From a virus, in IMG/VR virus record IMGVR_UViG_3300033996_001430, positions 10,837-74,836 of that record: a stretch of DNA of 64,000 nucleotides; one strand, 5' to 3'. Positions 956 through 53,815 of the stretch are shown in pieces. How positions within the stretch are numbered: position 1 is the stretch's first letter; every line of letters begins with the position of its first letter. The translations under genes and the position numbers were made by a program. Below the pieces are notes generated by a model. The model was given only the letters and a program-made list of their open reading frames with translations, did not search any database and was not told the DNA's origin.

Positions 956-991
956 AATATTATTTATTATAAATATACTATTTTTATTTTG

Positions 992-1058: not shown

Positions 1059-1064
1059 ATTTTA

Positions 1065-1157
1065 CTATCAGCTCTTCGGCATTCTACTCCCCGCAACACG
1101 GAATTGTATCTTACTTAGCCCATCGTCAGCGGTATGGGTACCGAAGTTCACTAATAG
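1065..1157 (-). ncRNA. putative structured ncRNA (three-way junction), family unknown
   Basis: CTATTAG/CTGATAG and CTTCGGTA/TGCCGAAG stems enclose CCCAT/ATGGG and TAC..TTCC/GGGA..GTA hairpins; GC-rich, non-coding. Confidence 0.5.
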
Positions 1158-1160
1158 TTT

Positions 1161-1239
1161 GAGGTTGAGAACCTCTGTGTTGTAAAGTAGATTAAATTCT
1201 TTCTCTCAACTCCTATTCCTTTCTCAAGGGAACAACACA
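1161..1239 (-). ncRNA. putative structured ncRNA, family unknown
   Basis: TGTGTTGT/ACAACACA stem, inner TTCC/GGAA hairpin, GAGGTT/AACCTC hairpin, possible GTTGAGA/TCTCAAC pseudoknot. Confidence 0.45.
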
Positions 1240-1250
1240 ATATTTTATTC

Positions 1251-1484
1251 TCAAACATTTGGTGTGAAACGTTCTGCCGCCTCCTTGTAGATAGACATCT
1301 GAGTCATCATCAAGTGGGTATAAACATTATCACCAACTATCTCGTGAACCATTTTACATTTCTCTCTAACAACTCCTTCTGTACGGACAAAACCTTGTGG
1401 TCCATCTTCTTTCATTTCTCTAACCGCTTGAGCCAATTCCAAGTCAGTCATATCAGAGAATACTTTTGTTACTTCGTTTTCCAT
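1251..1484 (-). CDS. hypothetical protein
   Basis: 77-aa ORF behind TAGATTTG promoter. Confidence 0.75.
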   Translation of the reverse strand: MENEVTKVFSDMTDLELAQAVREMKEDGPQGFVRTEGVVREKCKMVHEIVGDNVYTHLMMTQMSIYKEAAERFTPNV

Positions 1485-1504
1485 AGTTTGTTATTTTGAT
1501 TTGA

Positions 1505-1512
1505 CAAATCTA
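1505..1512 (-). promoter_or_regulatory. Bacteroidota-type -7 promoter element (TAnnTTTG)
   Basis: TAGATTTG with TTTG further upstream; would drive the ORF, ncRNA and tRNA-like cluster. Confidence 0.65.
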
Positions 1513-1552
1513 CAACAAAAATACTCTCAAACAAAATTTATTTTATGTTCAT

Positions 1553-1744
1553 TTATTCACCCTCATGTAATTTCTTATTTTTTTGTTCAGCCCAAAGGTC
1601 AACTAAAAGGAACAATCCCCACCACTTAACATCAACATATTCTTCAATTTTAGTTCCTGTAAATGCTGAAATCAACAATAGTACAAAAAGGTAAAGAGCA
1701 ACGATTAAGGGAAGTATTCCTATTATTTTTTTGAAAGTTTTCAT
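1553..1744 (-). CDS. small membrane protein
   Basis: two hydrophobic segments. Confidence 0.7.
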   Translation of the reverse strand: MKTFKKIIGILPLIVALYLFVLLLISAFTGTKIEEYVDVKWWGLFLLVDLWAEQKNKKLHEGE

Positions 1745-1838
1745 AATATATATTTTTTAGTTATTTAGTTTAATTCATCAAATATTTTATAGGTAAAATC
1801 TGAATATCTTTTACCGAATGTTGCATATACTAATTATT

Positions 1839-2045
1839 TTAATCTTCTAAATCTAATAACCAAGTCATTTTATCCAACCAAAAACTAATAGTTGGAAATG
1901 CAATAGTAATTATTGCTAACATCCATCCCCATAGTTGCCATCCTATTTCTGTATCACTTTCATTAGTATATACACCCCAAATACCAATACCCATGATTGT
2001 ATTTGTTACAATGAATGCTAAAATTCTTTTTAATATCTTTTTCAT
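1839..2045 (-). CDS. small membrane protein
   Basis: two hydrophobic segments. Confidence 0.7.
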   Translation of the reverse strand: MKKILKRILAFIVTNTIMGIGIWGVYTNESDTEIGWQLWGWMLAIITIAFPTISFWLDKMTWLLDLED

Positions 2046-2059
2046 ATTTTTCTATTGTT

Positions 2060-2230
2060 TTAATTTTCAATATGATTGTAAATCAATTTCATTACCCAAG
2101 CATTTTCAAGTTCATTTATACCACATACATGACACGCTTCTTCTTCAAGATTGTAATACATAACATTACCGTCTTTATCTTTCATGAAATCCATATTTCT
2201 AAGATCTATGATTACGTATTGTCCTTTCAT
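2060..2230 (-). CDS. small hypothetical protein (56 aa, not in ORF track)
   Basis: MKGQYVIIDLRNMDFMKDKDG..; fills gap in operon. Confidence 0.65.
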   Translation of the reverse strand: MKGQYVIIDLRNMDFMKDKDGNVMYYNLEEEACHVCGINELENAWVMKLIYNHIEN

Positions 2231-2231
2231 T

Positions 2232-2348
2232 CTATTTCTTTTTAAATCGTTTCTCTTGTATCTTCTCTTTTACTAACCCCACGATCAGTAGTACCAATAA
2301 GGTTACGCTTACTATAAGGGTCATCCAATGTATCTCTATTCTATCCAT
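2232..2348 (-). CDS. small membrane peptide (38 aa, not in ORF track)
   Basis: MDRIEIHWMTLIVSVTLLVLLIVGLVKEK..; start overlaps upstream stop. Confidence 0.55.
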   Translation of the reverse strand: MDRIEIHWMTLIVSVTLLVLLIVGLVKEKIQEKRFKKK

Positions 2349-2518
2349 TACCTTTTTTTATTTTTTCTGAATATATTACGTTCGTATTCTAAATCCCAAA
2401 TCCATCTTGTTCTACAAGTCCATACCCACAATCTAACTCTCCACCGATGTCTTAGTTTAACCTTCCATGGAAGTTTCTCCATTTCTTTGAGTAATCTGTC
2501 AACAGTTTTAGTTCTCAT
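2348..2518 (-). CDS. small basic Trp-rich protein (56 aa, not in ORF track)
   Basis: MRTKTVDRLLKEMEKLPWKVKLR..; overlaps both neighbours. Confidence 0.6.
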   Translation of the reverse strand: MRTKTVDRLLKEMEKLPWKVKLRHRWRVRLWVWTCRTRWIWDLEYERNIFRKNKKR

Positions 2519-2855
2519 GTTTCTCTGTGATTTTAATTAACTTAGTTAGACAAGATAATTCAGCCTCTTCGTAGGTGGGGTGAGAACTCATCATTAAACC
2601 ATTCTTCAACAGGTTATAACCCAACTCAAGTTTCTTGTCATCAATGGGTTTAATCACTATGCACAACCCACTCTCTCTAAACCATCTAAATGCTTGTTGG
2701 TATAGTGGTGTATTACATTCACCATCAAAATCCATAGAATCATATAATAACACTTTTTCACCTTTCATATCTTTGTAATAAGCAAAGCAAGGTTCATCAA
2801 ATCCAAGTGTTTTGAGTTTCATTGCCAACTCATAGGGTACAAATTCTTTATTCAT
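2508..2855 (-). CDS. hypothetical phage protein (start revised to MNKEFVPYE)
   Basis: TATATTTG 4 nt upstream of ATG 2855; LKTLGFDEPC..PLYQQAFRWFR. Confidence 0.8.
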   Translation of the reverse strand: MNKEFVPYELAMKLKTLGFDEPCFAYYKDMKGEKVLLYDSMDFDGECNTPLYQQAFRWFRESGLCIVIKPIDDKKLELGYNLLKNGLMMSSHPTYEEAELSCLTKLIKITEKHEN

Positions 2856-3123
2856 ATGACAAATATATTGCAATGTTCTTGTCAATCCAAATTTTATTTA
2901 GTGATTGATGTCTTATCTCGTTTATGGTATCTGGTCTATATGTTGTATCAGGATTCATTATTATGGTCCCAAAGTTGTACACCGTCGTATCTTTCTTCTG
3001 TGTCACCATAATTGGTACCAGTTCCCCGTATTGATCCACCCAATATAAATCTTGTGATACCTTTGGTGAACATCCAATTAGTAGTAATACTATTATTATG
3101 TAATTACATATAATCTTCATCAT
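2848..3123 (-). CDS. putative lipoprotein
   Basis: hydrophobic N terminus ending LLIGC. Confidence 0.6.
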   Translation of the reverse strand: MMKIICNYIIIVLLLIGCSPKVSQDLYWVDQYGELVPIMVTQKKDTTVYNFGTIIMNPDTTYRPDTINEIRHQSLNKIWIDKNIAIYLSYE

Positions 3124-3277
3124 CGTTATTATCTATTCTAATATAATTTTCATAATCCTTACAATAACATTCAAAACATCTGTATATATCTTTTTCCGTA
3201 TCAGAGTTGTTATATGTCAAGATAACAAAAACTTCTTCAGATCCGCAATTCATACATTTGTTTTTTGGTTCTACCAT
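3104..3277 (-). CDS. small zinc-ribbon protein (57 aa, not in ORF track)
   Basis: CMNC..CFEC. Confidence 0.6.
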   Translation of the reverse strand: MVEPKNKCMNCGSEEVFVILTYNNSDTEKDIYRCFECYCKDYENYIRIDNNDDEDYM

Positions 3278-3280
3278 ATG

Positions 3281-3646
3281 TTACAATGTTTTATTCCAAC
3301 TTATCAATTCCATTATCTGTCTTGTTAGATGTCCTGCCGTTTTTGTTCCGTCAATACTCCATCCGATAATTAAATGTTCAATCTCAGAATATAAAATATT
3401 TTCTCTTACCAATGTGGGTAAACTATCTTTAGTTTTTTCTAATACTTCATTAGCCTTTTTTAGTGATTCAGGGAATAAAACGTCCTGACGGTACTTTGGT
3501 ATTGACACCACCTCATCGTACCACTGAAACCCATCTAAATCAGTTTCTTTCATTGAAAATAGAAGACTTTGGTACTCCATACCTGTTTCATAATAATTAC
3601 TTATAAACCATTGGATCCTTTCATCATATGTTAATTCTTTTTCCAT
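3281..3646 (-). CDS. hypothetical protein (start revised to MEKELTYDER)
   Basis: TATTTTTG just upstream of ATG 3646. Confidence 0.75.
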   Translation of the reverse strand: MEKELTYDERIQWFISNYYETGMEYQSLLFSMKETDLDGFQWYDEVVSIPKYRQDVLFPESLKKANEVLEKTKDSLPTLVRENILYSEIEHLIIGWSIDGTKTAGHLTRQIMELISWNKTL

Positions 3647-3659
3647 AACAAAAATATAC

Positions 3660-3689
3660 AAAAAATCCCCCATATAATCAATGGGGGAT
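3660..3689 (-). terminator. intrinsic terminator
   Basis: ATCCCCCAT/ATGGGGGAT stem plus T tract. Confidence 0.75.
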
Positions 3690-3703
3690 GAACCTACTTT
3701 ACC

Positions 3704-4486
3704 TTATGAATTTTTTTCACATTCCTCTTTCACCTGAATAAAGATATCAGTTAATTCACGTTTCTTATAGTCAAGAATATAATCAGGAACATTCTTTTTT
3801 ACCATCATATAAACATCATCATCAAACTTCGTTCTTGCCACCCATATAACATCATCTATTATAGCTTCAATAAACTCACCTGACGTTCTATAATCACATG
3901 GGTACACCTCCTCCAATACCGCTCTAATTAAAAGATCCAATTCATTTATTCTTCTCTTAAACTCATTTGAAAACTTTCTTTCTTCTGTGACATTTTCTGT
4001 GACATTATCTATGACATCTTCTGTGTCATCTTCCATATCTTCATTCTCAATAACATGACAATCTAAAGATATTTTTGGTTTTGTACTAAAAAATACTGGG
4101 TGACCCACATCCCTAACATCAAAGGGAAAAAGCCTTTTAAACTTATCTAACATAATTTGTTTATACCAACTATCTATATGTGAAACATTATCATCAAAAT
4201 AATGTTTTAAATGCACATCAATAATTTTACCACCTGATCTTCCAGTTCTTTCTTCTATAAACAACACTTCTACACCTTCCACATTTTCAGAATAAATAAA
4301 ATCCTTAACTAACTTAGCCTGATCGTTAATGTCATCAATATCAATTTCCAATATTTTCGCTAACCTTTTAAATCCACCAACAGTTTTTGACGCTCGTTGA
4401 ATACCGTCAGTCTTAATTAGATCAGTTAAACTATCTTTTAATGTTTCTTCATTTAATATTTTTCTTATACGTTCTTTTAGTTTCAT
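3704..4486 (-). CDS. leader-bearing multidomain hypothetical protein
   Basis: MKLKERIRKILNEE; N domain paralogous to 5084-5569; C-terminal RR..PCDY domain. Confidence 0.8.
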   Translation of the reverse strand: MKLKERIRKILNEETLKDSLTDLIKTDGIQRASKTVGGFKRLAKILEIDIDDINDQAKLVKDFIYSENVEGVEVLFIEERTGRSGGKIIDVHLKHYFDDNVSHIDSWYKQIMLDKFKRLFPFDVRDVGHPVFFSTKPKISLDCHVIENEDMEDDTEDVIDNVTENVTEERKFSNEFKRRINELDLLIRAVLEEVYPCDYRTSGEFIEAIIDDVIWVARTKFDDDVYMMVKKNVPDYILDYKKRELTDIFIQVKEECEKNS

Positions 4487-5094
4487 ATCGTATTAACCTT
4501 AATCATATTATAAAATATATCAGCAATTTCATCAAAACTACTAACATTTTTTGATCTAATTGTGTCCTTTGTTTGTGAGATTAATCTTTCAAAATGGTTC
4601 AATGGAATATCTTTATACATTGATAAAGTTTTTCTATTTGGAACATTTATAAAACCTAACTTAACAAATTCTCTTACTTTTCTATTGGCGAATTCATCCG
4701 CAATAATTTCAATTTTTTTCATTGCAATTGCAGCTTCTTTAACATCTGTTTCATCCAAATAAAATTCATACATCTTTTCATCACCATATTTTTTATATTG
4801 GTACTGATGAGCAATCTCATGGAATATTATAAATAAAAAATCAGGTAATTGTTGTTTAAAAATTACCTCATTAAATAAAACACCATTATGTACGGCTAAC
4901 CCTAAAGCCGGATATTTAAACGTCGCAACTTCAATTTTTTTACAGTTTGAATTCTTTATAAATGATTCAATATTATCAATAAAACCTTCAGTTTCAGGAT
5001 ATGTTTCCATTACTTGTATTAAGAATTGTTCAATACCTTGAGTTTCTTCCTTTAATATTTTTTTTATGGTTTCTTGCAGTATATTAGTTACCAT
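4483..5094 (-). CDS. putative zinc metalloprotease (HExxH) with leader
   Basis: IFHEIAHQYQ and EIIADEFA; leader LQETIKKILKEE. Confidence 0.6.
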   Translation of the reverse strand: MVTNILQETIKKILKEETQGIEQFLIQVMETYPETEGFIDNIESFIKNSNCKKIEVATFKYPALGLAVHNGVLFNEVIFKQQLPDFLFIIFHEIAHQYQYKKYGDEKMYEFYLDETDVKEAAIAMKKIEIIADEFANRKVREFVKLGFINVPNRKTLSMYKDIPLNHFERLISQTKDTIRSKNVSSFDEIADIFYNMIKVNTI

Positions 5095-17271: not shown

Positions 17272-17850
17272 TTAGTCAATATAGTCAGGATCATTTTCTG
17301 ATAACCATTCAAACATTTCCAATCTACATTCTTCTAACCAATCAGTACAGGTATCAATAATACTATCGTAGTAGTTTGAATTAAACCAATCTAATAACTC
17401 GGATATTTTATAAAACTCAAAATTAATCTCAACAGGATAATATAATTGTGGATCATTTTCATAATTACGATTCCAATTATTATAAAAAATCAAATTTATT
17501 GGTAAAATATCACTACCATCCCAAAACATAGTTGCGTAACCGCCCATACTTTCTTTACTTTTTTTAAATGTAATTTCAAAAGTCCAAGATCCCACCATGC
17601 TATCAATATCAAGTTTAACATCAACACCCTTATTACTAAAAGTTCTTGGTAAAACTTTCTTTTTAAAAATATAATAACTTAATATATCATTACACTCTTC
17701 GTTAGTAAATGGTGTTGTTTTTTGAAACATTATATCAGCCAACTTAATAGGAAACTTATATCTTTTTAATGTTTCTATTAGACCAAACTCCTCAACAGAT
17801 TGATCAACCTCATGTTTAATATTATCAATATTTGATTCACTAATAATCAT
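17272..17850 (-). CDS. leader-bearing hypothetical protein
   Basis: MIISES; translationally coupled to upstream gene. Confidence 0.75.
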   Translation of the reverse strand: MIISESNIDNIKHEVDQSVEEFGLIETLKRYKFPIKLADIMFQKTTPFTNEECNDILSYYIFKKKVLPRTFSNKGVDVKLDIDSMVGSWTFEITFKKSKESMGGYATMFWDGSDILPINLIFYNNWNRNYENDPQLYYPVEINFEFYKISELLDWFNSNYYDSIIDTCTDWLEECRLEMFEWLSENDPDYID

Positions 17851-19337
17851 TATGGTTGAAGTATTGAAGAAGCGTATTTATAAGATTCTTCAGGTATTTT
17901 ACCTCTAAGTTCAGTAAATGGCGTTTTATTTTTAAACGCTTCTGAATATGCTTTTAAGTTAGGACCACTATTATATCCCGCAATTGAAAGATCAAGTCTT
18001 CCTGGAAATTTACTCAATAATACTTTCATCATTTTAGGATACGCTTTCAACGCATCACTAACATTACAAGGATCACCACCACCCCCATAAGTTGGCCAAG
18101 TTCCCGGCATAAACTGAGCAATACCTTTAGCACCCGCACTTGAATTTCTCTTACATAACATAACATCAGGACTAAATGCAGACTCACTAAATAATTGTCT
18201 GATTGCAATTTTTGGGTCTAACCCAATCTCTTCAACATCAGACATAAACGTTTCATAACTATCTCCAGCAGCATTTTTGAATCTAGATTCAATATCTGAC
18301 GGGTATTCTCTAACTTTTATACCTGGATTTTCAATTACCATTGGATTAAAGTTTTTATTACTCTTATCACTTTTACCAAAAGTATATCTCTTACCTGTTA
18401 TTTTAAATAATAAATCGCTTATAATACCACCTGTCGTATCAGGTGTTAATTTACCTGTCTGTTCTAAATTATTGGTTTCTTGATAGTCCTCAATAGCCTG
18501 TGTTGTTTCACCATCTACTTGACCTGTCATTGGTAAATCGCTTTTATTTATAACATTCAAGGAAAATTGCATGGTTTTAATATCTTCAGGTGTCGCTCCA
18601 CTTTCCATATTATCTTTTTTAGATAATATGGTTTGAATTGATTTAAAAAGTCTTTGGGACGCAGTTTGGGTTTCAGTATTAGTACTACTATCAGTATTAG
18701 CACCAACCGTTATATTTTTTAAATCACCCATATTAGCATAAACCTGATCTCTCATTAACTTGTGTTGCGCAGATCCTACGTGAACACCATCATTACTCCA
18801 ACTCATATCACCAACTAATTTTGGTATTACTACCGCTCCAGTAATACTAGTCGCCAAATCAGTTTGGTATTTCACTCTTTTAGGTTTATAAGCTATCATA
18901 CATTCTCTATCACAATATTTAGTTGGTTTAACTTTTTCCGGATTAAATATTGTTTCACTGTCAAATCCTACCAATACAATTGCCTTTCCACCTTGACCAT
19001 TAACTAAGTCAACCATTTTTTGTATATTACCAATTGGTTTTGTTATTGGTTGTGGAGACATTACGTCATTTGCACCACCATAAATGAAAACTAAATCATA
19101 TTTTTTTTCACTTAATTTTGTTGTAAGGTTTTCCAACATCCAATCAGTTCTCATCCCACCTTTAGCAACCTGAGTTACATCCCATTCAGGATGGTCTTTA
19201 GCAATTAAGTAGTTCCATGTCCATCCATCACCAGCACTATGACTATCACCAACAAACATAACATTAATTTTCCCGTTATCTTCTTTGATGAGGTGTACTA
19301 AAGTTTTTAATTGTTCTTCACTTATTATAATCTTCAT
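17850..19337 (-). CDS. SGNH esterase + peptidoglycan-binding + lytic transglycosylase (SLT) fusion, with leader
   Basis: GDSH, GANDV and DGVH (SGNH); TGQVDGETTQAI..YQ (PG-binding); SESAF, GAKGIAQFMPGT and AGYNSG (SLT). Confidence 0.85.
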   Translation of the reverse strand: MKIIISEEQLKTLVHLIKEDNGKINVMFVGDSHSAGDGWTWNYLIAKDHPEWDVTQVAKGGMRTDWMLENLTTKLSEKKYDLVFIYGGANDVMSPQPITKPIGNIQKMVDLVNGQGGKAIVLVGFDSETIFNPEKVKPTKYCDRECMIAYKPKRVKYQTDLATSITGAVVIPKLVGDMSWSNDGVHVGSAQHKLMRDQVYANMGDLKNITVGANTDSSTNTETQTASQRLFKSIQTILSKKDNMESGATPEDIKTMQFSLNVINKSDLPMTGQVDGETTQAIEDYQETNNLEQTGKLTPDTTGGIISDLLFKITGKRYTFGKSDKSNKNFNPMVIENPGIKVREYPSDIESRFKNAAGDSYETFMSDVEEIGLDPKIAIRQLFSESAFSPDVMLCKRNSSAGAKGIAQFMPGTWPTYGGGGDPCNVSDALKAYPKMMKVLLSKFPGRLDLSIAGYNSGPNLKAYSEAFKNKTPFTELRGKIPEESYKYASSILQP

Positions 19338-30203: not shown

Positions 30204-30257
30204 TACACTTGGTAAATCAGAATACTGACACCATAAATCATCAGTGTGTACCTAAAA

Positions 30258-31310
30258 TTAATTTGATAACGGGAAATATATTTTTGGGTGTGATTGATAA
30301 TTTTCTAAAACAATATCATCCAAAGTATATTCTGAAATATCATTTACTGCCCTTTCAGATAATCTAACATTCGGTAATGGATATGACTCCCTTGTTAATT
30401 GTTCTTTAACACCATCTATATGATTTAAGTAGATATGACAATCACCTAAACTACAAATAACCTCATCAGGAACCATATTGACTTGTTTTGCCAACATCAT
30501 AAGTAACAAAGAATATGAGCTGACGTTATACGGCCATCCAAGTGCCGAATCGACACTGCGTTGGACCCACATTAAAGAGATTGCTCTGGTTGGGATATTA
30601 TGTTTATCCATATATTCCATTGTTTTAGGTTCTTTGTAATGAACTGACACCCAGTTATCTAATTTTTTCATCAACTCATATCTTTCCTCCAAACTCAACT
30701 CTCTTGTATAACATTGAAATCCATAATGACAAGGTGGAAGCACCATCGTGTCCAGTTCTCCAATATTATAAGCATTAACCATCAATCGTCTTGAGTCTGG
30801 GTTTGTTTTAAGGTCACGGATTAGGTTTGCGATTTGGTCAATTCCGTACTCAATCCTTCTTACACCTGCCTCTTTACTCTTATCTTCAACTACATCCCAA
30901 CCTGTATGCCAACTTCTCCATTGCTTACCATACACAGGACCTAAATCACCCCACTTTCTAGCAAACTCATCATCTGTTTTGATATGTTCAATAAAATCTT
31001 CTTTACTCTTTGGCCATCTTACTTCATCACTATCAACATATCTCTTATAAGCATCACCATCCCAAATATGACAATCATTATCAACAAGGTATTTGATGTT
31101 GGTATCACCTCTTAAAAACCATAGTAATTCAGTTACCATAGTTTTCCAAGCCATCTTCTTGGTTGTAAGAAGTGGAAATCCATCTTTCATATTATGACGA
31201 ATCTGTCTACCGAATACAGATAATGTTCCTCCGTTTCTAGTTTCTTTTTTTACTCCGTTATCAAGAATGTCTTGAAGGAGTGATTGGTATGATTTATCTA
31301 GGTTGTTCAT
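30258..31310 (-). CDS. thyA: thymidylate synthase
   Basis: FPLLTTKK, ELLWFLRG, LGPVYGKQWR, LPPCH, QRSVD..PYN, HIYLNH. Confidence 0.95.
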   Translation of the reverse strand: MNNLDKSYQSLLQDILDNGVKKETRNGGTLSVFGRQIRHNMKDGFPLLTTKKMAWKTMVTELLWFLRGDTNIKYLVDNDCHIWDGDAYKRYVDSDEVRWPKSKEDFIEHIKTDDEFARKWGDLGPVYGKQWRSWHTGWDVVEDKSKEAGVRRIEYGIDQIANLIRDLKTNPDSRRLMVNAYNIGELDTMVLPPCHYGFQCYTRELSLEERYELMKKLDNWVSVHYKEPKTMEYMDKHNIPTRAISLMWVQRSVDSALGWPYNVSSYSLLLMMLAKQVNMVPDEVICSLGDCHIYLNHIDGVKEQLTRESYPLPNVRLSERAVNDISEYTLDDIVLENYQSHPKIYFPLSN

Positions 31311-31332
31311 ATTTTTCTATTGTTTATCTAAT

Positions 31333-31647
31333 TTATTCACAACTTTCGGTATTAAATTCAGTTTCGTCAGGAGTTTCCTCAATCATAGGTTGGTTTTCTA
31401 ATCTCTCAATTACTATGTTAATTGCTTCAGGATAATGAGTATATCCCTGTCCGAAATTAATTCCCGTTAGTCCCAATACCTCATTGTTAATGTAATGTCG
31501 GTTTTTACCCTTACCTTTTAAAATCTCGTGGTCCATTGAAACATCGTTCCAATCTCTCAATACAAGTCCAGTACCACTAGGTTCCTTGTAATGTAACCTA
31601 ATGATATTGTTATGACTAAAGTTCTTAATAAATTCTCCTAGTGTCAT
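31333..31647 (-). CDS. hypothetical protein
   Basis: ORF in operon. Confidence 0.7.
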   Translation of the reverse strand: MTLGEFIKNFSHNNIIRLHYKEPSGTGLVLRDWNDVSMDHEILKGKGKNRHYINNEVLGLTGINFGQGYTHYPEAINIVIERLENQPMIEETPDETEFNTESCE

Positions 31648-31661
31648 ATTATTTTATTTAT

Positions 31662-31904
31662 TTAATTGATGTCTTCCAATCCATCAATTTTATCTCTCAA
31701 TGTGTTGATCGTTGAATGGACATATTCATCAAGTTCATGAGATACCTCCAAATACTTTCTTCTCAGTTCGTGGAACTTTTCATCCTGAACTTCTTTGAAT
31801 GATGAGTAATGTTTGAAACAATAGTGGAAACCTTCATTCTCCATTCTATAACGAACCATTTCAATTTCCTCTAATTGATTTTCTAATCTTTCTAAATCAC
31901 TCAT
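31662..31904 (-). CDS. hypothetical protein
   Basis: EGFHYCFKHYS..FHELR. Confidence 0.7.
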   Translation of the reverse strand: MSDLERLENQLEEIEMVRYRMENEGFHYCFKHYSSFKEVQDEKFHELRRKYLEVSHELDEYVHSTINTLRDKIDGLEDIN

Positions 31905-31995
31905 TTCTTTAAAAATATATTTAATATAGATTGTTTTACCACATTAAGATAGTACAAACAGACAAACAAATAAATCTTTATCTTCTTCATTTGTT

Positions 31996-32406
31996 TTATA
32001 CGGTGTGTTCTATATGAACTCTCACACAATTCTGAGGCATTCTATTCAAGTGTCTGTAATTGTTGATGTATCCCATCATATTACCGCTACCTACGGCATT
32101 TGCAGAGTGGATCACAACTTCTACTACAGGTTTACCATCCAACCATTGGTTAACCAACCATTTGGTGCAATCCATACCAGTTTTCTCAGTGATGTTATCG
32201 TAATTGATTATGTAGTTTTTCACAACACCGTAGTGCCATTCCGCCATCGCACTATCACCTAAGTCGTGATCCAACGATATTAATTCAATATTCTCCAACC
32301 CAATTGAGTTGATCTTTTGAACGAACTCATCATAAGAACGTACAACGATCCAACTTGGATCCACTGGCGTTCTTACATCATCTAAATAAATTCTAACTTT
32401 GTCCAT
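31996..32406 (-). CDS. cyclic-phosphate-processing receiver-like domain protein
   Basis: YLDDVR, ISLDHDLG, KTGMDC..WL, IHSAN; TATATTTG 4 nt upstream. Confidence 0.8.
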   Translation of the reverse strand: MDKVRIYLDDVRTPVDPSWIVVRSYDEFVQKINSIGLENIELISLDHDLGDSAMAEWHYGVVKNYIINYDNITEKTGMDCTKWLVNQWLDGKPVVEVVIHSANAVGSGNMMGYINNYRHLNRMPQNCVRVHIEHTV

Positions 32407-32421
32407 ATTACAAATATACTT

Positions 32422-32724
32422 TTATTTTTTTATTAAACCTAATTCTAACCGATATTCTTTAATCTTAACTCTTGCTTCCTGATATTGATCACCATTATTG
32501 GCTTGATGACCTTTTGAAACCGCAAGAGTAATTTCCATTTCATTATCAATAATGTAAGATATTTTTTCCTGATCCGTTAGTTCACATGGTGTTATTTCAT
32601 TCTTAATATAAGTTAAGATCAATTGTTTAATGTTAAGAACCTGTTTGTTAGGGTTGGTTTTACCATTATAACTCATAACAGAAGAATCGTAGATATACTT
32701 ACATAGTTGTTGTAGTTTATCCAT
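32422..32724 (-). CDS. hypothetical protein
   Basis: ORF in operon. Confidence 0.7.
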   Translation of the reverse strand: MDKLQQLCKYIYDSSVMSYNGKTNPNKQVLNIKQLILTYIKNEITPCELTDQEKISYIIDNEMEITLAVSKGHQANNGDQYQEARVKIKEYRLELGLIKK

Positions 32725-32729
32725 TTCAA

Positions 32730-32990
32730 TTATATTAACTCAAATTCTTTATTTACCAATTCTATTTCTTTATTCAATCTTTCAAGTTCTTTGGATATCA
32801 TTTCTATGATAATCTCCTTGTTATTAAAACTTACATCACCTTTTACCATAAACGGTCCAGGATTCGTAAACTCAATTTTTACCCCCAACCCACAACCTTT
32901 AAGAGCACCTTCTAGTTTGTATTTTTGTCTTTCCAATCTATCAAGATTTTCTTTGATTATTTTTGCCTGTTCAAATTTTTCTATTTCCAT
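32730..32990 (-). CDS. hypothetical coiled-coil protein
   Basis: ORF in operon. Confidence 0.7.
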   Translation of the reverse strand: MEIEKFEQAKIIKENLDRLERQKYKLEGALKGCGLGVKIEFTNPGPFMVKGDVSFNNKEIIIEMISKELERLNKEIELVNKEFELI

Positions 32991-33108
32991 TTTTATATTT
33001 TTTACGTAAGTATTCTTCCCAAACTTCTTGTTTTATTCCGTTCACAAAAAACCAACCAAGATTTAATTCAAACCATTTATTAATCCGATAAAAAGTTTTT
33101 TTGATCAT
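32971..33108 (-). CDS. small hypothetical protein (45 aa, not in ORF track)
   Basis: MIKKTFYRINKWFELNLGWFFVNG.. Confidence 0.6.
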   Translation of the reverse strand: MIKKTFYRINKWFELNLGWFFVNGIKQEVWEEYLRKKYKNGNRKI

Positions 33109-33110
33109 AT

Positions 33111-33497
33111 TTAAAAATTTCTTAATTTTTGATAATCTTCTTTGGTTAAAACAATTTCATTTAAATCTGAGTTTAAACCTCTAATGGTTTTCCAAGCTTC
33201 CTTAACTCTACCCCACAAAGATTTATTCCCATAAGTTTTATAAAACGTTATGTAATAATCGGTATCATCATTGAACTTGTCAACAGACATACAGGTACAA
33301 TTGTCAACACATTTAACAATTACTTCAGATCTTTCATTGTTTTCAACTTTCATCCTATTAATGTTGTCATTAATTTCCTTTAATTCAATTTCATCCAATA
33401 TGACTTTTAATCTGATCATGTAGTCATAGGTAGGTTTTTCACCGTATATGTTAATAAGACGATTGTAAATAAATTGTAAGTGTTCTCTTTTTATCAT
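33111..33497 (-). CDS. hypothetical protein
   Basis: ORF in operon. Confidence 0.7.
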   Translation of the reverse strand: MIKREHLQFIYNRLINIYGEKPTYDYMIRLKVILDEIELKEINDNINRMKVENNERSEVIVKCVDNCTCMSVDKFNDDTDYYITFYKTYGNKSLWGRVKEAWKTIRGLNSDLNEIVLTKEDYQKLRNF

Positions 33498-33500
33498 TTT

Positions 33501-35399
33501 TTATTTCTTTAAATTAATTACACCATTTTCAATAACATCATTAACCATTGATTTTTGCATATATTCTGTCCCTAAAGTGTGTTTCACTCCATTTTGGATA
33601 ATATCATTAAACCTTTCATCACCATCTAACCAATCACCATCTTCAGTGTGTTTCACCCCATTTTGAATGGTATCTTTAACAGTGTTTTCTCGTGAAAGTT
33701 TAAGATCTATGGTGTTTTTCACCCCATTTTGGATTATTTCTTCAACTTGCCAATCAATATATTGTGTCATTGGGGAAATATTTCTCACCCCATTTTGAAT
33801 GGTATCTTCAACTCCTGATTGAATCGATTCAGGCAAAAACAGGGTGTTTTTCACCCCATTTTGAATGGTATCTTCAACAAGCTTCTTATTTTCAAAAATC
33901 TTTGGACTGGTGTTTTTCACCCCATTTTTAATAGCATCTTCAACTTTATTATATTGTGCCCACCCAATCTCGATGTGTTTCACCCCATTTTGAATGGTAT
34001 CTTCAACCGCACAATCATTAAAGATGTCACCAATAACGGTGTGTTTAACTCCATTTTGAATGGTGTCTTTAACAACGCTGCTTCGTCGTAGACAAATATC
34101 CCCGATCTCTTTAACCCCATTTTGAATGGTATCTTCAACTGAAGTGACTGTCAGTTTTGACAATGGAAAGGCGTACTTCACCCCATTTTGAATGGTATTT
34201 TCAACGCTTTTGGGACAATCTGTACTTGAACGATTGGTGCGTTTCACCCCATTTTGAATGGTATCTTCAACTGCCAATGGTCTAACCCCTTTATGTAATT
34301 CAGTTTCCTTCACCCCATTTTGAATGGTATCTTTAACTCTCAACTTGTTCTTTTGTCCATTTTGGATGGTTTCTTTCACCCCATTTTGAATGATATCTTC
34401 AACATCATATTTACAGTTTCCAACAGAACTGGAGATGTATTTTATCCCATTTTGAATGGCATCTTCAACCTCAAACGAATCTTCTTCCTCTATCATTCGG
34501 GTGTATTTCACCCCATTTTGAATAATATCTCCAACCAGTTCCGGATGAAGATGACCAACCGTAGATGTGCGTTTCACCCCATTTTGAATGGTGTCTTCAA
34601 CTCTTTGGTGTTTCTTCCTGAAGTTCCTTCTGGTGCGTTTCACCCCATTTTGAATGGTGTCTTCAACTATCTGATGCAATGGATGATGATTTACCTTGAT
34701 GTGTTTCACCCCATTTTGAATGGTATCTTCAACTCGTGTTGCGTTCTCTTTCCCTATATCTGAGGTGAGTTTCACCCCATTTTGAATGGTATCTTCAACT
34801 GAATCGGGTTGTTCAGAATAGTAAGTAGAGGTGTATCTAACCCCATTTTGAATGGTGTCTTCAACTATAATGCTCAATGGTTCCAACGTACGATTGGTGT
34901 GTTTTACCCCATTTTGAATGGTATCTTCAACTACACTATTAATACGGATAATCGCTTTATTGGTGTGTTTCACCCCATTTTGAATGGTATCTTCAACACC
35001 CATGCACATCCACGGATTACTTTCTTCGGTGTGTTTCACCCCATTTTGAATGGTATCTTCAACTCTTTTCTCAGCATTAGCATTTGTTATGCTGGTGTGT
35101 CTCACCCCATTTTGAATGGTATCTTCAACCACCTCAGGTTTAAGAAATCTTGACTCAAACCATTCGGTTATATATTCTTGATTTTCCATAAGATCTAAAG
35201 ATATTCCCTTAAATAAAGATTTAAATAAATTGTAGTTATACCACAATGTTTTTTCTTTAGTAAATTCAACCATCCATTTTAATTCTTCGGTATTAATTAA
35301 CCAAAAAGATCCATTATGGTTGTATATGTCCATGCCATTTGTGACATCATTAATGATCTCAAATAAACATTCTTTTCTTTTTATTTTTTTATAATCCAT
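33501..35399 (-). CDS. 90-aa N-terminal domain plus 25 VEDTIQNGVK(H)T repeats separated by unique ~10-aa inserts
   Basis: 632-aa open frame; spacer lengths are all multiples of 3; repeat variation is largely synonymous or conservative. Confidence 0.8.
   Translation of the reverse strand: MDYKKIKRKECLFEIINDVTNGMDIYNHNGSFWLINTEELKWMVEFTKEKTLWYNYNLFKSLFKGISLDLMENQEYITEWFESRFLKPEVVEDTIQNGVRHTSITNANAEKRVEDTIQNGVKHTEESNPWMCMGVEDTIQNGVKHTNKAIIRINSVVEDTIQNGVKHTNRTLEPLSIIVEDTIQNGVRYTSTYYSEQPDSVEDTIQNGVKLTSDIGKENATRVEDTIQNGVKHIKVNHHPLHQIVEDTIQNGVKRTRRNFRKKHQRVEDTIQNGVKRTSTVGHLHPELVGDIIQNGVKYTRMIEEEDSFEVEDAIQNGIKYISSSVGNCKYDVEDIIQNGVKETIQNGQKNKLRVKDTIQNGVKETELHKGVRPLAVEDTIQNGVKRTNRSSTDCPKSVENTIQNGVKYAFPLSKLTVTSVEDTIQNGVKEIGDICLRRSSVVKDTIQNGVKHTVIGDIFNDCAVEDTIQNGVKHIEIGWAQYNKVEDAIKNGVKNTSPKIFENKKLVEDTIQNGVKNTLFLPESIQSGVEDTIQNGVRNISPMTQYIDWQVEEIIQNGVKNTIDLKLSRENTVKDTIQNGVKHTEDGDWLDGDERFNDIIQNGVKHTLGTEYMQKSMVNDVIENGVINLKK
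33510..35129. repeat. CRISPR-like repeat-spacer array inside a coding sequence
   Basis: 25 copies of consensus GGTGTGTTTCACCCCATTTTGAATGGTATCTTCAAC (+ strand), 66-nt period, 24 unrelated spacers (30 nt; one 27, one 33), most degenerate at the low-coordinate end; no cas gene in window. Confidence 0.9.
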
Positions 35400-35456: not shown

Positions 35457-36200
35457 TTATTTGTATTTCCAAATAAAACCTTGTGACTTTTTATATCCTT
35501 TCCTTAAACAATTATTTATTGCTTTGTAAGATAATTCTAATTCTTTTGAAGCAATTAAAGCATTCGTCCATTCTTTAATAAATTCATTGTCTAATGAAAA
35601 TTGTAAAACAGGTTTAGATTTAGCGTGAGGTAATCCGGTTCGTTCTAAATATCTTTTATAATTATTATTTTTACCCTTTGCGGATTCACTCATTTTAGTT
35701 TTTGTTTCGGAGGTCTTTAATTTACCCTTCCAAAATTCACTCATCTTCTTTTTTGTTTCATCGGTAATTTTTTTACCAAGAGCTGATTGACTCATTTTCT
35801 TTTTTGACTCTTCATTATGTTTCCTACCGTACCAAAATGGTTTTAATGTCCCATTCAAAACTAACTCATCATCTTTTGGTACTCTATAAACTTTACCATT
35901 TTCACCCATATATTGTCCCAAACCAACAGTTTTAAAACCAACATCAGGAATATGGGCATTCCTGTTTAATTTATCGGAAATATGTTCAATGATTAACTCT
36001 CGTTCATATCTAATACAATCTTCTCTATTAATAAAATCACATTTAATAATAGTTTTAATTAATTTTTTTTTATCTGTTTTCCAAGACCTCATAGACCCCA
36101 TATAATAAACATCTTTAGTTGGTTCAACTTTAGATGTTCTACTACCAAAATAAAATTCTTTTGTTTTCGGTAATTCTAATTTATAAACATAATGATACAT
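35457..36200 (-). mobile_element. GIY-YIG-type homing endonuclease with NUMOD3/NUMOD1 motifs
   Basis: YVYK..FYFGSR; H.EESKKKMS repeats; KPVLQF..GFIWKY. Confidence 0.8.
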
Positions 36201-38049: not shown

Positions 38050-38667
38050 CTATTTTTTAATGAACCACCAACTGGCAAGAAACTCATCGGTTTTATTTAC
38101 TTTATATCCGTTGTTAAGACAGAATTCATCCACTGCCGGGTTAACACCAAACATTCCTGTATATGTTGACTTCTCAGGTTGTCCATCAGGGAAAGTATAT
38201 AAAGGTTGATCCTTTTCAATTTGACCCTCATAAAAATAATCAGGTAAATAATCATGACCCATAATCAAACCACCCGACTTAACCTTAGGGTACCATAATC
38301 TAATATCTTCTTTAACTGCCTGATATGTGTGGTTAGCATCAATATACACAAAATCTAATGATTTATCCTCAATGAAATTACAAGCGTGTTCACCCTTCAT
38401 TCTTAACATATAAGCACGATCTTCAAATCCCTTAATGTTATCCATAGCCTGAGAATATGCGTCAATGTGTTCTCTATGGTTTGAGACATCATCATACTCC
38501 TGATGAGGTAATTCTCTCCATACATCAACCATCAATAAGGTTCCACCCCAATTGTTTAATATTGTGTTCGCAAATTGCCCTTTGAAGGATCCTAATTCAA
38601 CACCAATTCCATTTAAGTTATGAAACTTAATGAAATCACCAATCTGTTCTCTATTCGTAAAATTCAT
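38050..38667 (-). CDS. class I SAM-dependent methyltransferase (Methyltransf_24-like)
   Basis: GVELGSFKG, DFVYIDANHTY, GGLIMGHDY. Confidence 0.85.
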   Translation of the reverse strand: MNFTNREQIGDFIKFHNLNGIGVELGSFKGQFANTILNNWGGTLLMVDVWRELPHQEYDDVSNHREHIDAYSQAMDNIKGFEDRAYMLRMKGEHACNFIEDKSLDFVYIDANHTYQAVKEDIRLWYPKVKSGGLIMGHDYLPDYFYEGQIEKDQPLYTFPDGQPEKSTYTGMFGVNPAVDEFCLNNGYKVNKTDEFLASWWFIKK

Positions 38668-46904: not shown

Positions 46905-48038
46905 TTAATGTGAATCACCGTAATTATTTTTCTCACTTGCTATCAAATAATCAGGGTTAATGATTTTAGCAATTTTGTGTCTACTACCATCCAAAGATTT
47001 AACAACAACACCTTCGTGAGGAACTTTAGTCCCTTGAATATAGTTACCGAACACGTATTTATCTTGTTTTTCTTTTGACCAAGGACCTGAATATAATGTT
47101 TCAACCTCATCTAATTCTAAACATTGGAAGTGTGTTGTTTGACTTAAATTATCTTCATAATGTCCATCAACCTCAACATCAAAACCAGCAAAACGAATCT
47201 CCGTTAAACCATAATCATAATTCTTTTGGATTCCGTGTCCGAAGATCTCACCATAGATAATAAAACCAGAACCTATCCCATCAGGTGAATAAACATCTTT
47301 AACGTGATCCCAAAGTTTTCTACGAATATCGTATTTTATTGCTATGTCTTCCCACACATTTCTATCATAAAATCCTTGTGAATCAGAACCTTTTTCTACA
47401 TTATGGCTACCCACAACATATTCATATCCAATCCATTGATTACCAAACCATCCACGAATCTTATCTAAGAATGAAAGTTTTTTCTTCCTTACAATTCCGT
47501 AACGAGCATTGGTCCCGTGTAATTTACGAGTAATACATACCTCATCGTCCTCATTAAACATATCCGGTACATTTTTCATATTTGGGAATTTGTAGTAAAC
47601 GTGGAAGTTAGGGTTTTGGTGGTACTTGAATTTTCTACCCCCAACACTCATCTCAACCATCTTAACTGGTGGTTCGTATTTGGTGATACCTAATAGTTCC
47701 ATTAAATCTTCTCCTTCTGTAAGAGTGGGGTATTTTCTTAAAGCAGGAATAGTATTCTTACTCATAATTAAACACTCAGAGTAAACTTTACGAAGTTTAA
47801 CGGTACGAACTCTTTGACCTTTTCTTAGGTAATTAGTTACACCCATTAAATCAGATAATTCAACGGGGATTACCGCATCGGTAGTTGCAACAACAACCTT
47901 ATCACCAACACTGTATTCACCTTTCTTAGTAATGGCTTGCCAACCACCAACCAATGCAAGTTCAATGTTATCCGCACCTTCTATTGGTATAATCTCTCCG
48001 ATTATTCCAACATAACATACACTATTTAAATTTTCCAT
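46905..48038 (-). CDS. RNA ligase (DRB0094/Rnl5-like family)
   Basis: N-terminal PIEGADNIE..GWQ; KLHGTN motif I; YGEIFG; FD; EGVV; K.I. Confidence 0.85.
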   Translation of the reverse strand: MENLNSVCYVGIIGEIIPIEGADNIELALVGGWQAITKKGEYSVGDKVVVATTDAVIPVELSDLMGVTNYLRKGQRVRTVKLRKVYSECLIMSKNTIPALRKYPTLTEGEDLMELLGITKYEPPVKMVEMSVGGRKFKYHQNPNFHVYYKFPNMKNVPDMFNEDDEVCITRKLHGTNARYGIVRKKKLSFLDKIRGWFGNQWIGYEYVVGSHNVEKGSDSQGFYDRNVWEDIAIKYDIRRKLWDHVKDVYSPDGIGSGFIIYGEIFGHGIQKNYDYGLTEIRFAGFDVEVDGHYEDNLSQTTHFQCLELDEVETLYSGPWSKEKQDKYVFGNYIQGTKVPHEGVVVKSLDGSRHKIAKIINPDYLIASEKNNYGDSH

Positions 48039-51475: not shown

Positions 51476-53815
51476 TTAATATATTCTTACATTTCCTCCC
51501 GGTGTTGATACCTTTGGTTCTTCAGCTCCTCCCCCTCCAGTTGAAGATCCACCTGTAAGAGCCATCATAATTTGATTTCTTGTATTTTGATCTCTTTTAC
51601 AATCGACGGTTAATCCCGCATCTTTAGTGTTATTTAAATATTGTTTTACTTGTCTTAAAGCATCACACATTTCTTTTTTACGTAAATCTCTTTGTCTTTG
51701 TCTTTCAGGATCTACATTACCTCCTCCTCCTCCACCACCACCTACTACTCCACTTCTTCTACCTCTACCACCTGTACCACCTGTACCACCTGTACCACCT
51801 GTACCACCTGAACCACCTGAACCACCACCTCTAATAACCTGGTCAGTACCCTCTTTTGCGTCTTCACCAAATAAAACTTTTTGTGTTGATCCACCACCAC
51901 CAACGTTTTTATATTCAGCATCAATCACTACATTATATTCATCTAAAACATTTAAAATTTTAAAGTACCCATTATTATCACTTAGTTGTGTATCACTAGT
52001 ATTAGGAGATACTTTAATCCATTTACCTTCATCCTTTGTCGTATAATTATGTTTTCTACCCGAATACTTTATAGGTGATGCAGCATCATAAGCCATAATT
52101 TTTTTAAATGTTAACTCATCAACATCACCCGTATCTTCCAAGTTAGTATCTTTTTGTTGGAAAGCTAATACCGCTTTTTGCGTTTCAGGACCATAACCAC
52201 CTTTAGTACTAATACCTAATTTTGTTTGTATTGCAACAACATCAGGACCCGTACTTTTAAGCGTTAAAGGTCTTGTGTATTCTGTTGCAGATGCGGGTAA
52301 TTCTGTTGCAGATGCGGGTAAAACATTCCGTGCGTTAAAGGCTTCAGTACCTATTATTGCCTCTAAAGTTGCATCATCAACAACTCCATCAGTTCTTAAT
52401 GGTGTTGGAAGTTTAGCTCCTTCAGTTGTTTGGAATTTAATTACCGCTTTTTGAGTGTCTTTTCCAAATTTGTTATCAACAGGTCTTAACTTTAATGCCT
52501 TTTGTATCAACCCAACATCAGGGTCTTCCGCACCTATCCATAAAGTTTGTTCTTCAGTTAATAAATTATGTCTAAAACCTCTGATTCTATTGTTACTTAC
52601 ACTATCTTCTAATAAATTACGATTAGGTGCACCTTGGATACTATTGTCACTTTTACCATTATCATTAAAATCGGGATCTGTAGTTAAAACTATTTTATTT
52701 TGTTCCGGTCCTGGAATTGCCCAACTAAAATATTCAGGGTTAATATATGGTACTATATCATCATAACTCCAAGCATTAGTTGATAGTGAAAATTGTATTT
52801 TTTTATCATTACAATCAAACTCAGTTATAACTTTATTACTATCCATTTGTACCCCTACATCTGTGTAATCAGTACCTCTTTGGTCTTTTGCAACACCATA
52901 AACAAACTTATCAATAATAGGATTACCTGTGTTTAATTGATACCCAACACCTCCAGGTATTTGTTTCGGTTTATTCACTAATGCCGGATTACGTCTTGGA
53001 GAATTAGGGTCTATACAGTAATAACCTTCAAACGATACTTGATAAGAACCAATTTCTCCATCACCAGTATGAGGGGTATATTTACGACCCACACATTTCC
53101 ATGCTTCCCCATCACTACCCGCTCTATATGCCTCAATTGTATCATATCCACATTTTTTAGCATTTGCTAATAATGTGTCGTTCAATGTTTCTTCACTTTT
53201 TTTAGTATTTTCAATACTATCACCAACAGATTTCCAATATTCGTCACGTTTAGCCTCTGTTAAATCAATTGACTTAGTTAATGAATGTATTGAAGCTTGA
53301 GCAACATAATAAGAATAATCATCTGATCCAACATTAGCAACCGACGCTCTATATATATTACCATATCCAAGGTCCTCTCCTCTTTTTACAGTAGCACACC
53401 ATGATGGGAAATCTAACTGATAAATTATACTTCTAACTTTATCCTCTACCGTATCTGTCGCTCTGTACTGAGTAATAAGATCCTCCACTACTTGTTCAAT
53501 ATTTGAACTTAGAGGTTTACCCATTTTTAAAGTATTACATTTTTTCGATAATTCATCTACCGCTAAATCAAGATTACTACGACTAATACTTGCAATTTCT
53601 GTTTGAGCATTTTTAGCTAGCCAGTAACTAGCACCATCAGCCCCAATACAAAAACCACCATCAACACATGGGTTGAACTCTATTTTAATATTATCATATG
53701 TTTTATCACCAACTGTTACTTTACCAGTGTCGTAACTCTCATTTAACAAACCATAACTTTCATTTAGACTTTGTCTAACAATTCTTTTTAATAAACTATC
53801 TGTAATTCTTTTCAT
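51476..53815 (-). CDS. large leader-bearing protein with two peptidoglycan-binding domains and Gly-rich linker
   Basis: IVRQSLNES; IQKAL..DNKFGKDT..FQ; IQTKLG..YGPET..FQ; shares AKKCG..Y...WKC with 42753-44249. Confidence 0.75.
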   Translation of the reverse strand: MKRITDSLLKRIVRQSLNESYGLLNESYDTGKVTVGDKTYDNIKIEFNPCVDGGFCIGADGASYWLAKNAQTEIASISRSNLDLAVDELSKKCNTLKMGKPLSSNIEQVVEDLITQYRATDTVEDKVRSIIYQLDFPSWCATVKRGEDLGYGNIYRASVANVGSDDYSYYVAQASIHSLTKSIDLTEAKRDEYWKSVGDSIENTKKSEETLNDTLLANAKKCGYDTIEAYRAGSDGEAWKCVGRKYTPHTGDGEIGSYQVSFEGYYCIDPNSPRRNPALVNKPKQIPGGVGYQLNTGNPIIDKFVYGVAKDQRGTDYTDVGVQMDSNKVITEFDCNDKKIQFSLSTNAWSYDDIVPYINPEYFSWAIPGPEQNKIVLTTDPDFNDNGKSDNSIQGAPNRNLLEDSVSNNRIRGFRHNLLTEEQTLWIGAEDPDVGLIQKALKLRPVDNKFGKDTQKAVIKFQTTEGAKLPTPLRTDGVVDDATLEAIIGTEAFNARNVLPASATELPASATEYTRPLTLKSTGPDVVAIQTKLGISTKGGYGPETQKAVLAFQQKDTNLEDTGDVDELTFKKIMAYDAASPIKYSGRKHNYTTKDEGKWIKVSPNTSDTQLSDNNGYFKILNVLDEYNVVIDAEYKNVGGGGSTQKVLFGEDAKEGTDQVIRGGGSGGSGGTGGTGGTGGTGGRGRRSGVVGGGGGGGGNVDPERQRQRDLRKKEMCDALRQVKQYLNNTKDAGLTVDCKRDQNTRNQIMMALTGGSSTGGGGAEEPKVSTPGGNVRIY
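52280..52321. repeat. perfect 21-bp tandem duplication (LPASATE x2)
   Basis: TTCTGTTGCAGATGCGGGTAA x2. Confidence 0.9.

Follow-up and report, generated by a model that had tools for sequence, protein, structure and literature searches.

A translated CRISPR-like array in an uncultured lake jumbo phage, possibly written by the host spacer-acquisition machinery and recording past hosts

The type VI-B CRISPR array of Flavobacterium columnare lacks adaptation genes and is filled in trans by the Cas1 of the type II-C system. The chromosome of the bacterium itself supplies about half of the new spacers of this array, and both the VI-B and the II-C arrays combine repeats of 36 nucleotides (nt) with spacers of 30 nt (PMC8092290). 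Huge phages carry compact arrays without Cas1, Cas2 and Cas4, often without an effector; these are non-coding and have a median of six repeats (PMC7162821). Phages also have solitary repeat units and encode RNA anti-CRISPRs (Racrs), small non-coding RNAs that keep the structure of CRISPR repeats (PMC10651486). Finally, CRISPR arrays have been wrongly translated into database "proteins with spaced repeats", which are annotation accidents (PMC7673337). Here, we analyse a phage gene in which 25 CRISPR-like repeats and 24 spacers are read as one protein. It lies on the minus strand of a 64,000-nt stretch of DNA (hereafter the window), i.e., positions 10,837 to 74,836 of the IMG/VR virus record IMGVR_UViG_3300033996_001430. 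We found no description of translated CRISPR arrays in the literature that we searched.

The record comprises 74.8 kb, ~26% of the genome according to the CheckV estimate, and belongs to an uncultured lake jumbo phage. The window has a guanine-plus-cytosine (GC) content of 31% and nearly all of its genes are on the minus strand. We propose that the array derives from a CRISPR array, has turned coding, and was extended, at least formerly, by CRISPR-type capture of 30-bp pieces of DNA, including DNA from the host chromosome. We give this reading a probability of roughly 55%. The features on which the argument draws are the following.

33501-35399, minus strand: whole gene, an open reading frame (ORF) of 632 residues with an N-terminal domain and the repeat-spacer array
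35130-35399, minus strand: N-terminal domain (residues 1-90), a small alpha/beta domain; the 3' end of its coding sequence is the candidate leader of the array
33510-35129, minus strand: array occupying the 3' four-fifths of the gene, with 25 repeats (36 nt each) and 24 spacers in a single frame
35094-35129, minus strand: repeat 1, which adjoins the N-terminal domain and departs from the consensus at 1 position
35028-35063 and 34962-34997, minus strand: repeats 2 and 3, identical to the consensus
34338-35093, minus strand: spacers 1-12, the N-proximal block, private to this array in the searches made
34734-34763, minus strand: spacer 6, a 29/30 match to a TonB-dependent receptor gene of a bacterial genome (G747, contig C158)
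34338-34367, minus strand: spacer 12, which contains a piece of the repeat
34272-34301, minus strand: spacer 13, an old cassette common to many family members
34236-34271, minus strand: repeat 14, a recombination breakpoint in the comparison with the viral contig L090
33945-33971, minus strand: spacer 18 (27 nt), an old cassette common to other members
33612-33644, minus strand: spacer 23 (33 nt), an old cassette, the most widely shared in the family
33510-33545, minus strand: repeat 25, degenerate and terminal, at the C terminus of the protein

The original prediction, made from the letters of the window, had described this locus as a translated CRISPR-like array with a 66-nt period, and we recovered all of its repeats and spacers where it had placed them. 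Twenty-four copies of the repeat differ from the consensus at 0-8 positions; the 25th is degenerate, and the stop codon of the gene follows two codons after it. The spacing between repeat starts is 66 nt in 22 cases, 63 nt in one and 69 nt in one, and the spacers measure 30 nt in 22 of the 24 cases, the other two having 27 and 33 nt. Since the unit of 36 + 30 = 66 nt equals 22 codons, its gain or loss never shifts the frame. The repeats have a mean pairwise identity of 86%. The spacers are mutually unrelated, as had been claimed, with 27.5% identity against 27.0% for shuffled spacers, and a fragment of the repeat is indeed found inside one of them (spacer 12).

The frame is open far beyond chance. 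The 24 spacers contain no in-frame stop, compared with 8-25 stops per frame in the other five; when the spacers were shuffled with their composition preserved, 17.6 stops arose on average, and none of 20,000 shuffles gave zero. The family behaves in the same way. Every repeat is in frame in ~100 related genes, and all 628 distances between repeats within the arrays of 83 viral loci are multiples of three (461 of them are exactly 66 nt), distances not divisible by three being found only between genes. The 269 unique 30-nt spacers of the family have no stop in 2,690 in-frame codons, with stops at 4.4-10.5% of the codons in the other frames. The absence of in-frame stops noted at the outset is therefore real, and the stops and frameshifts by which orthologs would betray a non-coding array are not found. 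We could rule out a spuriously translated CRISPR array, i.e., a frame open by chance, on the grounds of these shuffles and codons. On the opposite (plus) strand, ORFs of 90-147 codons run through the array (33819-34091, 34320-34763, and 34809-35153). Stops make up just 4-6% of the codons in the antisense frames of the array, and spurious antisense genes may therefore be called there.

The peptide itself seems to be under selection, as the original prediction had it. Homologous spacers (99 pairs) differ at 108, 63, and 175 sites in codon positions 1, 2, and 3, respectively. Counted by codon, 158 of the changes are non-synonymous and 118 are synonymous, a ratio about half of that expected under neutrality. 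Old cassettes thus evolve slowly, through point mutations on which purifying selection acts moderately. At codon position 2, T is scarcer in real spacers than it would be in raw captured DNA, so that they encode fewer hydrophobic residues, and their third codon positions match the phage's own composition. Together, these two biases point to selection on the peptide and to a long residence of most spacers in the phage. Third codon positions are also the most variable ones in the repeat, so it evolves as protein too.

The repeat resembles those of type VI-B systems. Read on the plus strand, it is identical at 25 of 36 positions to the VI-B (Cas13b) repeat of F. columnare and at 23 of 36 to that of F. 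branchiophilum (both reference repeats are listed in PMC5395568, Table 4). An identity of 25/36 was never attained in 200,000 shuffles, and repeats of types II-C and V-A listed there match the phage repeat at 12-14 of 36 positions. The likeness is concentrated at one end of the repeat, where 19 of 21 bases are identical. Rfam detected no CRISPR repeat family and returned two chance-level matches only. Judged by its sequence, the phage repeat is a CRISPR repeat, either by descent or by imitation, and a diverged copy of a VI-B repeat in reverse-strand orientation.

Protein-level selection does not account for how the repeat is spelled. Threonine is encoded by ACC in 82% of the cases in the repeat against 14% genome-wide, glycine by GGG in 61% against 12%, and valine by GTG in 49% against 12%. 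With silent sites this far from the usage of the phage and with adjoining spacers saturated, the repeats must be copied or conserved as nucleic acid. The ordinary divergence of a repeat protein would not be expected to yield such repeats, and tandem duplication, which had been judged inadequate from the start, is so indeed: it is as nucleotide sequence that the repeats are maintained or copied, and the spacers have the identity of random sequences.

We searched for the sources of the spacers in bacterial genomes; only the 2-5 best candidates of each genome were scored, and some sources may have been missed. One of the 401 Bacteroidia genomes sampled, G747, matches the window at 34733-34763. 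The alignment (30/31) spans all of spacer 6 (30 nt, one mismatch) and one base of the repeat, and then ends. The matched site is antisense to, and within, a long ORF with TonB-dependent receptor domains; an Atlas look-up of this receptor returned "Bacteroidota" only. Contig C158, where it lies, also encodes a glycosyltransferase, RuvC, GreA, and an IS1595 transposase, and is therefore chromosomal. By our own arithmetic, ~1e-5 such matches are expected by chance: 24 spacers, ~870 genomes of ~3.6 Mb and two strands give ~1.5e11 placements, each with a probability of 7.9e-17 of matching at 29 or more of 30 positions. Spacer 6 was copied as a discrete 30-bp piece of a chromosomal gene of Bacteroidia. 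The genus, family, and order searches around G747 returned one identical set of 68 genomes. The match to spacer 6 was found in none of 67 relatives of G747, which places the source close to the G747 species.

The suggestion to search each spacer against bacteria and phages was thus rewarded for spacer 6 (1 of 24), the remaining spacers having no match in the collections searched. None of the other spacers of the window matched G747, nor did the arrays of three other family members (L038, L023, and L086) give any spacer-like match to it. Spacers 1-12 occurred in no other array or protein searched. The composition of the spacers agrees with a bacterial origin: their GC content is 38.6%, compared with 37-38% for random Bacteroidia 30-mers filtered for stops (58% pass the filter) and 31% for the phage. 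Matches of ~50 nt at 77-82% identity between the array of the window and 401 Flavobacterium genomes were judged to be chance, having no surrounding repeats, and a scan of genome contigs with an over-degenerate pattern gave single chance matches only.

The array also has a polarity. Repeats 1-4 of the window have 0-1 mismatches to the consensus and the last two have at least 8. This decay from the N to the C terminus, seen by the original prediction in the window, holds across 52 related arrays, where the mean number of mismatches by quintile is 2.3, 2.6, 3.7, 5.1, and 6.9. An array homogenised by unequal exchange would be expected to be degenerate at its two edges, and a one-sided decay is unlike this. 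One relative (L045) has five identical N-proximal repeats with four private changes, interrupted by one older unit, as would be expected from serial copying of the first repeat. Among the proteins closest to the window's own domain, P0003 and P0006 have three and two differing N-proximal cassettes, respectively; from the third or fourth cassette onward they do not differ up to the C terminus. P0002 and P0004 have distal cassettes in common and differ in the N-proximal ones, with some internal gains or losses. Growth of the array therefore looks polar, on the N-terminal side.

Recombination at the repeats shapes the arrays as well, and unit duplication and block exchange at repeats are seen in the family. 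The viral contig L090 (4.8 kb, positions 1-4765, from another sample) is 99.88% identical to window positions 30246-34271. The identity ends precisely where repeat 14 begins, and upstream the contig encodes a different N-terminal paralog, 39% identical. This contig is either a natural recombinant at the repeat or an assembly chimera at the repeat. The repeats also act as recombination sites at which cassettes are exchanged. Directly upstream of the array gene, at 35457-36200 on the minus strand, we found an HNH homing endonuclease (PHROG 314, E 2e-21), of which a 93-nt stretch is the only match of this region in the INPHARED phage collection. Mobile endonucleases adjoining a recombining array may be relevant to block exchange.

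The phage was found in at least 24 lake-water runs. In the lake metagenome runs X1, X4, X9, and X14, the bins holding repeats between window positions 33555 and 35108 have up to 20 times the depth of the flanks, and the same runs contain dozens of other inserts of 27-38 nt between the same repeats, at 10-20 times the flanking depth. This excess indicates that the lake community holds a large pool of such arrays besides that of this phage. Logan contigs break at the 36-nt repeats and none spans the array.

Several observations weigh against a captured and growing CRISPR array. Part of the array is old: three cassettes (spacers 13, 18, and 23) are widely shared across the family and diverge by point mutation. 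Old spacers in constant order differing only by point mutations were named beforehand as the mark of an ordinary repeat protein; this pattern holds for the shared part of the array. Most spacers appear to be old residents, given their phage-like third codon positions. The anticipated combination of shared C-terminal and new N-terminal spacers, clear in the closest relatives, is not clean over 26 pairs of arrays, in which the fraction of unshared cassettes is 0.50 in the N-terminal third, 0.39 in the middle and 0.45 in the C-terminal third. In one trio of arrays (L055, L066, and L071) the first unit is constant and variation begins at the second. Lake metagenomes of 2018, 2020, 2023, and 2024 contain identical pieces that together account for much of the array, with spacer 1 among the unchanged pieces in the 2023 run, so the array of this lineage has been stable for six years and shows no sign of ongoing growth.

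The repeat itself raises two further difficulties. The folding energies of the two genuine VI-B repeats are -10.9 and -12.2 kcal/mol (z-scores of -2.5 and -3.7), whereas the phage repeat reaches -6.8 kcal/mol, with a z-score of -0.4 on either strand, and forms two small unrelated hairpins instead of the hairpin with a terminal and an internal stem to which Cas13b binds. In F. columnare, base 36 of the repeat adjoins the leader and the GTTG end is far from it (PMC8092290, Fig. 1 legend). The fresh repeats and lineage-specific cassettes of the phage are on the GTTG, i.e., N-terminal, side; the VI-B orientation would place the growing end at the C terminus, opposite to the polarity observed. The ends of the repeat are nearly palindromic, so either orientation may be usable.

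The search for sources counts on the same side, since a bacterial origin was found for just one of 24 spacers. Spacers 1 and 4 had no match in viral contigs and spacer 2 had none in metagenome contigs. Among the youngest-looking spacers of L045, the first was unmatched in metagenome contigs, a collection of limited coverage that did not return L045's own contig, and the second and third matched only their own array in viral contigs. The array of L023 gave no spacer-like match in the 401 Bacteroidia genomes. Cas1 was undetected in G747, and a search of its 68 relatives with the pattern of the phage repeat gave chance-level single matches and no VI-B-like array. The idea of a CRISPR array captured into a gene is thus partly supported: the VI-B-like repeat, the bacterial source of one spacer and the cassette pattern of the closest relatives speak for it, and the old part of the array shows the pattern named beforehand as speaking against it.

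If the array was filled by a CRISPR-type integrase, the enzyme probably came from elsewhere. Cas1 had no match in four sister phage genomes that are 98-100% complete, two of which were checked for repeats and have a single array locus each. The 74.8-kb record has no ORF longer than 780 residues, and thus no gene of the size of a Cas effector in that part of the genome. We detected Cas1 in 18 of the 68 relatives of G747. Beside it are type II-C-like arrays (L241, L246, L240, L243, L247, and L248) with repeats of 36 or 47 nt, both with 30-nt spacers. On the coding strand, the phage repeat matches these II-C-like repeats at 15-17 of 36 positions (p ~0.003-0.01), and it has in common with them the start GTTG and a central TTCAAA block. 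The spacers of these II-C arrays had no match in the phage contigs compared, and a VI-B repeat pattern gave chance-level single matches only in the 401 Bacteroidia genomes; genome G816, flagged as unpublished, is the basis of none of our claims. By analogy with F. columnare, a host II-C Cas1-Cas2 acting on the phage array would be the simplest writer. That this enzyme serves lake jumbo phages as a writer of protein sequence, leaving a polar and recombining array of cassettes that records past hosts, is a tentative proposal to which we give slightly less than even odds.

The proposed mechanism would run as follows. During infection, a CRISPR-type integrase would insert 30 bp of DNA at the first repeats, duplicating one repeat each time. 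This integrase would most likely be the type II-C Cas1-Cas2 of the host, working in trans as in the VI-B array of F. columnare. About 58% of random captures would be free of stops, and captures bearing stops, shifting the frame or encoding very hydrophobic peptides would be purged. Each surviving capture would add a new 10-residue cassette between constant 12-residue cores that contain IQNG. The repeats would then act as recombination sites at which blocks of cassettes are deleted, duplicated or swapped between paralogs and phages. The enzyme, its insertion site and its present-day activity are what we infer from the patterns described above.

The main rival takes the array to work as nucleic acid, as a decoy or anti-CRISPR: its repeats would soak up the integration machinery of the host or, as RNA, pair or compete with CRISPR RNAs, and translation would be tolerated. 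Phage mimics of repeats that inhibit CRISPR-Cas are known (PMC10651486), the repeat resembles a host-type one and is conserved at the nucleotide level beyond the need of the protein, and a captured host spacer is what an integration sink would accumulate. We nevertheless hold this explanation to be unlikely. The canonical hairpin is lost on both strands, and the VI-B sense of the repeat is antisense to every gene of the region, with promoter-like sites for that strand no better than chance (8 against 13.8 expected). A decoy would leave unexplained why one and the same folded domain invariably precedes the array as part of the protein, and why selection on the peptide is visible in its stop-free codons (0 of 2,690), third-position bias and depletion of hydrophobic residues.

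Less probable still, in our view, is an ordinary and ancient tandem-repeat protein, with a 12-residue core and fast 10-residue linkers that evolve by point mutation and unequal recombination, whose likeness to CRISPR and match to a bacterium are coincidental. Many cassettes are old, shared between phages and diverging by point mutation, and this explanation accounts well for them, for unit duplication and block exchange at the repeats, for third positions of the spacers that match the codon usage of the phage, and for the stability of much of the array over six years. It would have to attribute to coincidence an identity of 25/36 with a VI-B repeat in the same 36 + 30 geometry (0 of 200,000 shuffles) and a bacterial match delimited by the borders of a spacer (~1e-5). 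Nor does it explain silent sites of the repeats that have not drifted next to saturated spacers, a decay of repeats on one side only, or a GC content of the spacers that is host-like and not phage-like.

A working guide-RNA array for a Cas13b or other effector of host or phage, open by happenstance, is very improbable: its geometry and repeat are like VI-B, one spacer matches a host gene, and huge phages do carry compact arrays without Cas1 and Cas2, some with host-chromosome spacers (PMC7162821), yet the hairpin is lost, Rfam recognises no CRISPR repeat family, the record lacks an ORF above 780 residues, the array is fused to a conserved protein domain, and a frame open over ~100 genes cannot be chance. 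The guide array, the chance ORF, and the ordinary repeat protein are thus each contradicted by a tested feature. A diversity-generating retroelement was rejected because the cassettes are mutually unrelated and not adenine-mutated copies.

The gene belongs to a large family of phage proteins. An exact 21-mer of the repeat was found in 83 viral contigs, several of them from jumbo phages of 290-309 kb, always with the repeats in frame behind an N-terminal stretch of ~75-120 residues; some phages have two such genes in tandem. The array had no match in INPHARED phages. Using residues 1-135 as a query we found 463 homologues of 347-1106 residues, none usefully named. The 90-residue domain alone gave 285 clusters at 50% identity, in proteins of 87-611 residues in which it is always N-terminal, and the number of repeats rises with protein length across these clusters. 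Many members (e.g., P0002, P0003, P0004, P0006, L010, and L060) end with a conserved module of ~60 residues after the repeats, which the protein of the window lacks.

AlphaFold with an alignment models residues 1-88 with a predicted local distance difference test score above 90, as a helix, four strands and two helices. No solved structure matched this domain, PHROGs had nothing for it, and the only proteins related to it by structure are uncharacterised ones from uncultured phages. For the repeat region, disorder is predicted when an alignment is used. Without one, one of five models is a beta-hairpin solenoid with weak matches to beta-helices, from which we draw no conclusion. A Pfam match to Dodecin (E 2.6e-8) was rejected, as it reveals no domain: the repeat core matches one helix in part, and 25 such matches add up to the score. 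Database names such as "predicted peroxiredoxin" and "predicted transcriptional regulator", and Dodecin assignments, of family members (P0022, P0027, P0031, P0038, and others) are spurious and come from the repeat core. Our guess is that the array would serve a small phage protein as a variable tail, with cassettes that are of use as peptides; this role is favoured because both the cassettes and the core are under selection at the protein level.

Other phage genes of the window, all on the minus strand, encode a thymidylate synthase (30258-31310), a fragment like a DNA methyltransferase (38050-38667), an RNA ligase (46905-48038), and two large proteins with endolysin-type domains (17850-19337 and 51476-53815). 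Most other large ORFs of the window have no PHROG match.

If the reading that we prefer is correct, the integration of spacers, known only for non-coding immune memory, also builds protein-coding sequence, and phages can exploit the adaptation machinery of their hosts. This would be a new route to protein hypervariability, beside diversity-generating retroelements, cassette recombination, and the precursor libraries of ribosomally synthesised and post-translationally modified peptides. It would also be a natural case of random peptides placed under selection within a living gene. Uncultured jumbo phages would carry a built-in record of host DNA, which would aid host assignment. In practical terms, CRISPR finders and gene callers will both claim such loci, and the family is large (>460 homologues).

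Multi-core cyanobactin precursors (PatE type) and the targets of diversity-generating retroelements have constant flanks, conserved at the DNA level, around hypervariable peptide cassettes. Unlike in these systems, the cassettes of the phage array are mutually unrelated and not mutated copies, and at least one is foreign DNA. The "proteins with spaced repeats" of the databases (PMC7673337) likewise stem from repeat-spacer DNA, but in the phage family the frame is open beyond chance in ~100 genes, the differences follow codon positions, and a folded domain stands in front. As with Racrs (PMC10651486), repeats that imitate host-type CRISPR repeats are borne by a phage and unaccompanied by cas genes; unlike in Racrs, the VI-B hairpin is lost, the copies are split by unique spacers, and all are coding. 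The compact arrays of huge phages (PMC7162821) too are borne by jumbo phages, without Cas1 (here in four complete sister genomes), and some have spacers matching a host chromosome, as one spacer here matches that of a probable host. The array described here differs from them in having 25 repeats, in being translated under selection and in its fusion to a protein domain. The VI-B arrays of Flavobacterium combine a 36-nt repeat with a 30-nt spacer as the phage does; that of F. columnare further has a repeat identical at 25 of 36 positions, no adjoining adaptation genes, and bacterial chromosomal DNA as a source of spacers (1 of 24 here). In contrast to these, the phage-borne array lies inside an ORF, with the protein read on the strand opposite to the sense of guide RNAs. 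It has no repeat hairpin and no cas13b in the record (~26% of the genome), and, given how the repeat is oriented, its presumed growing end lies on the other side.

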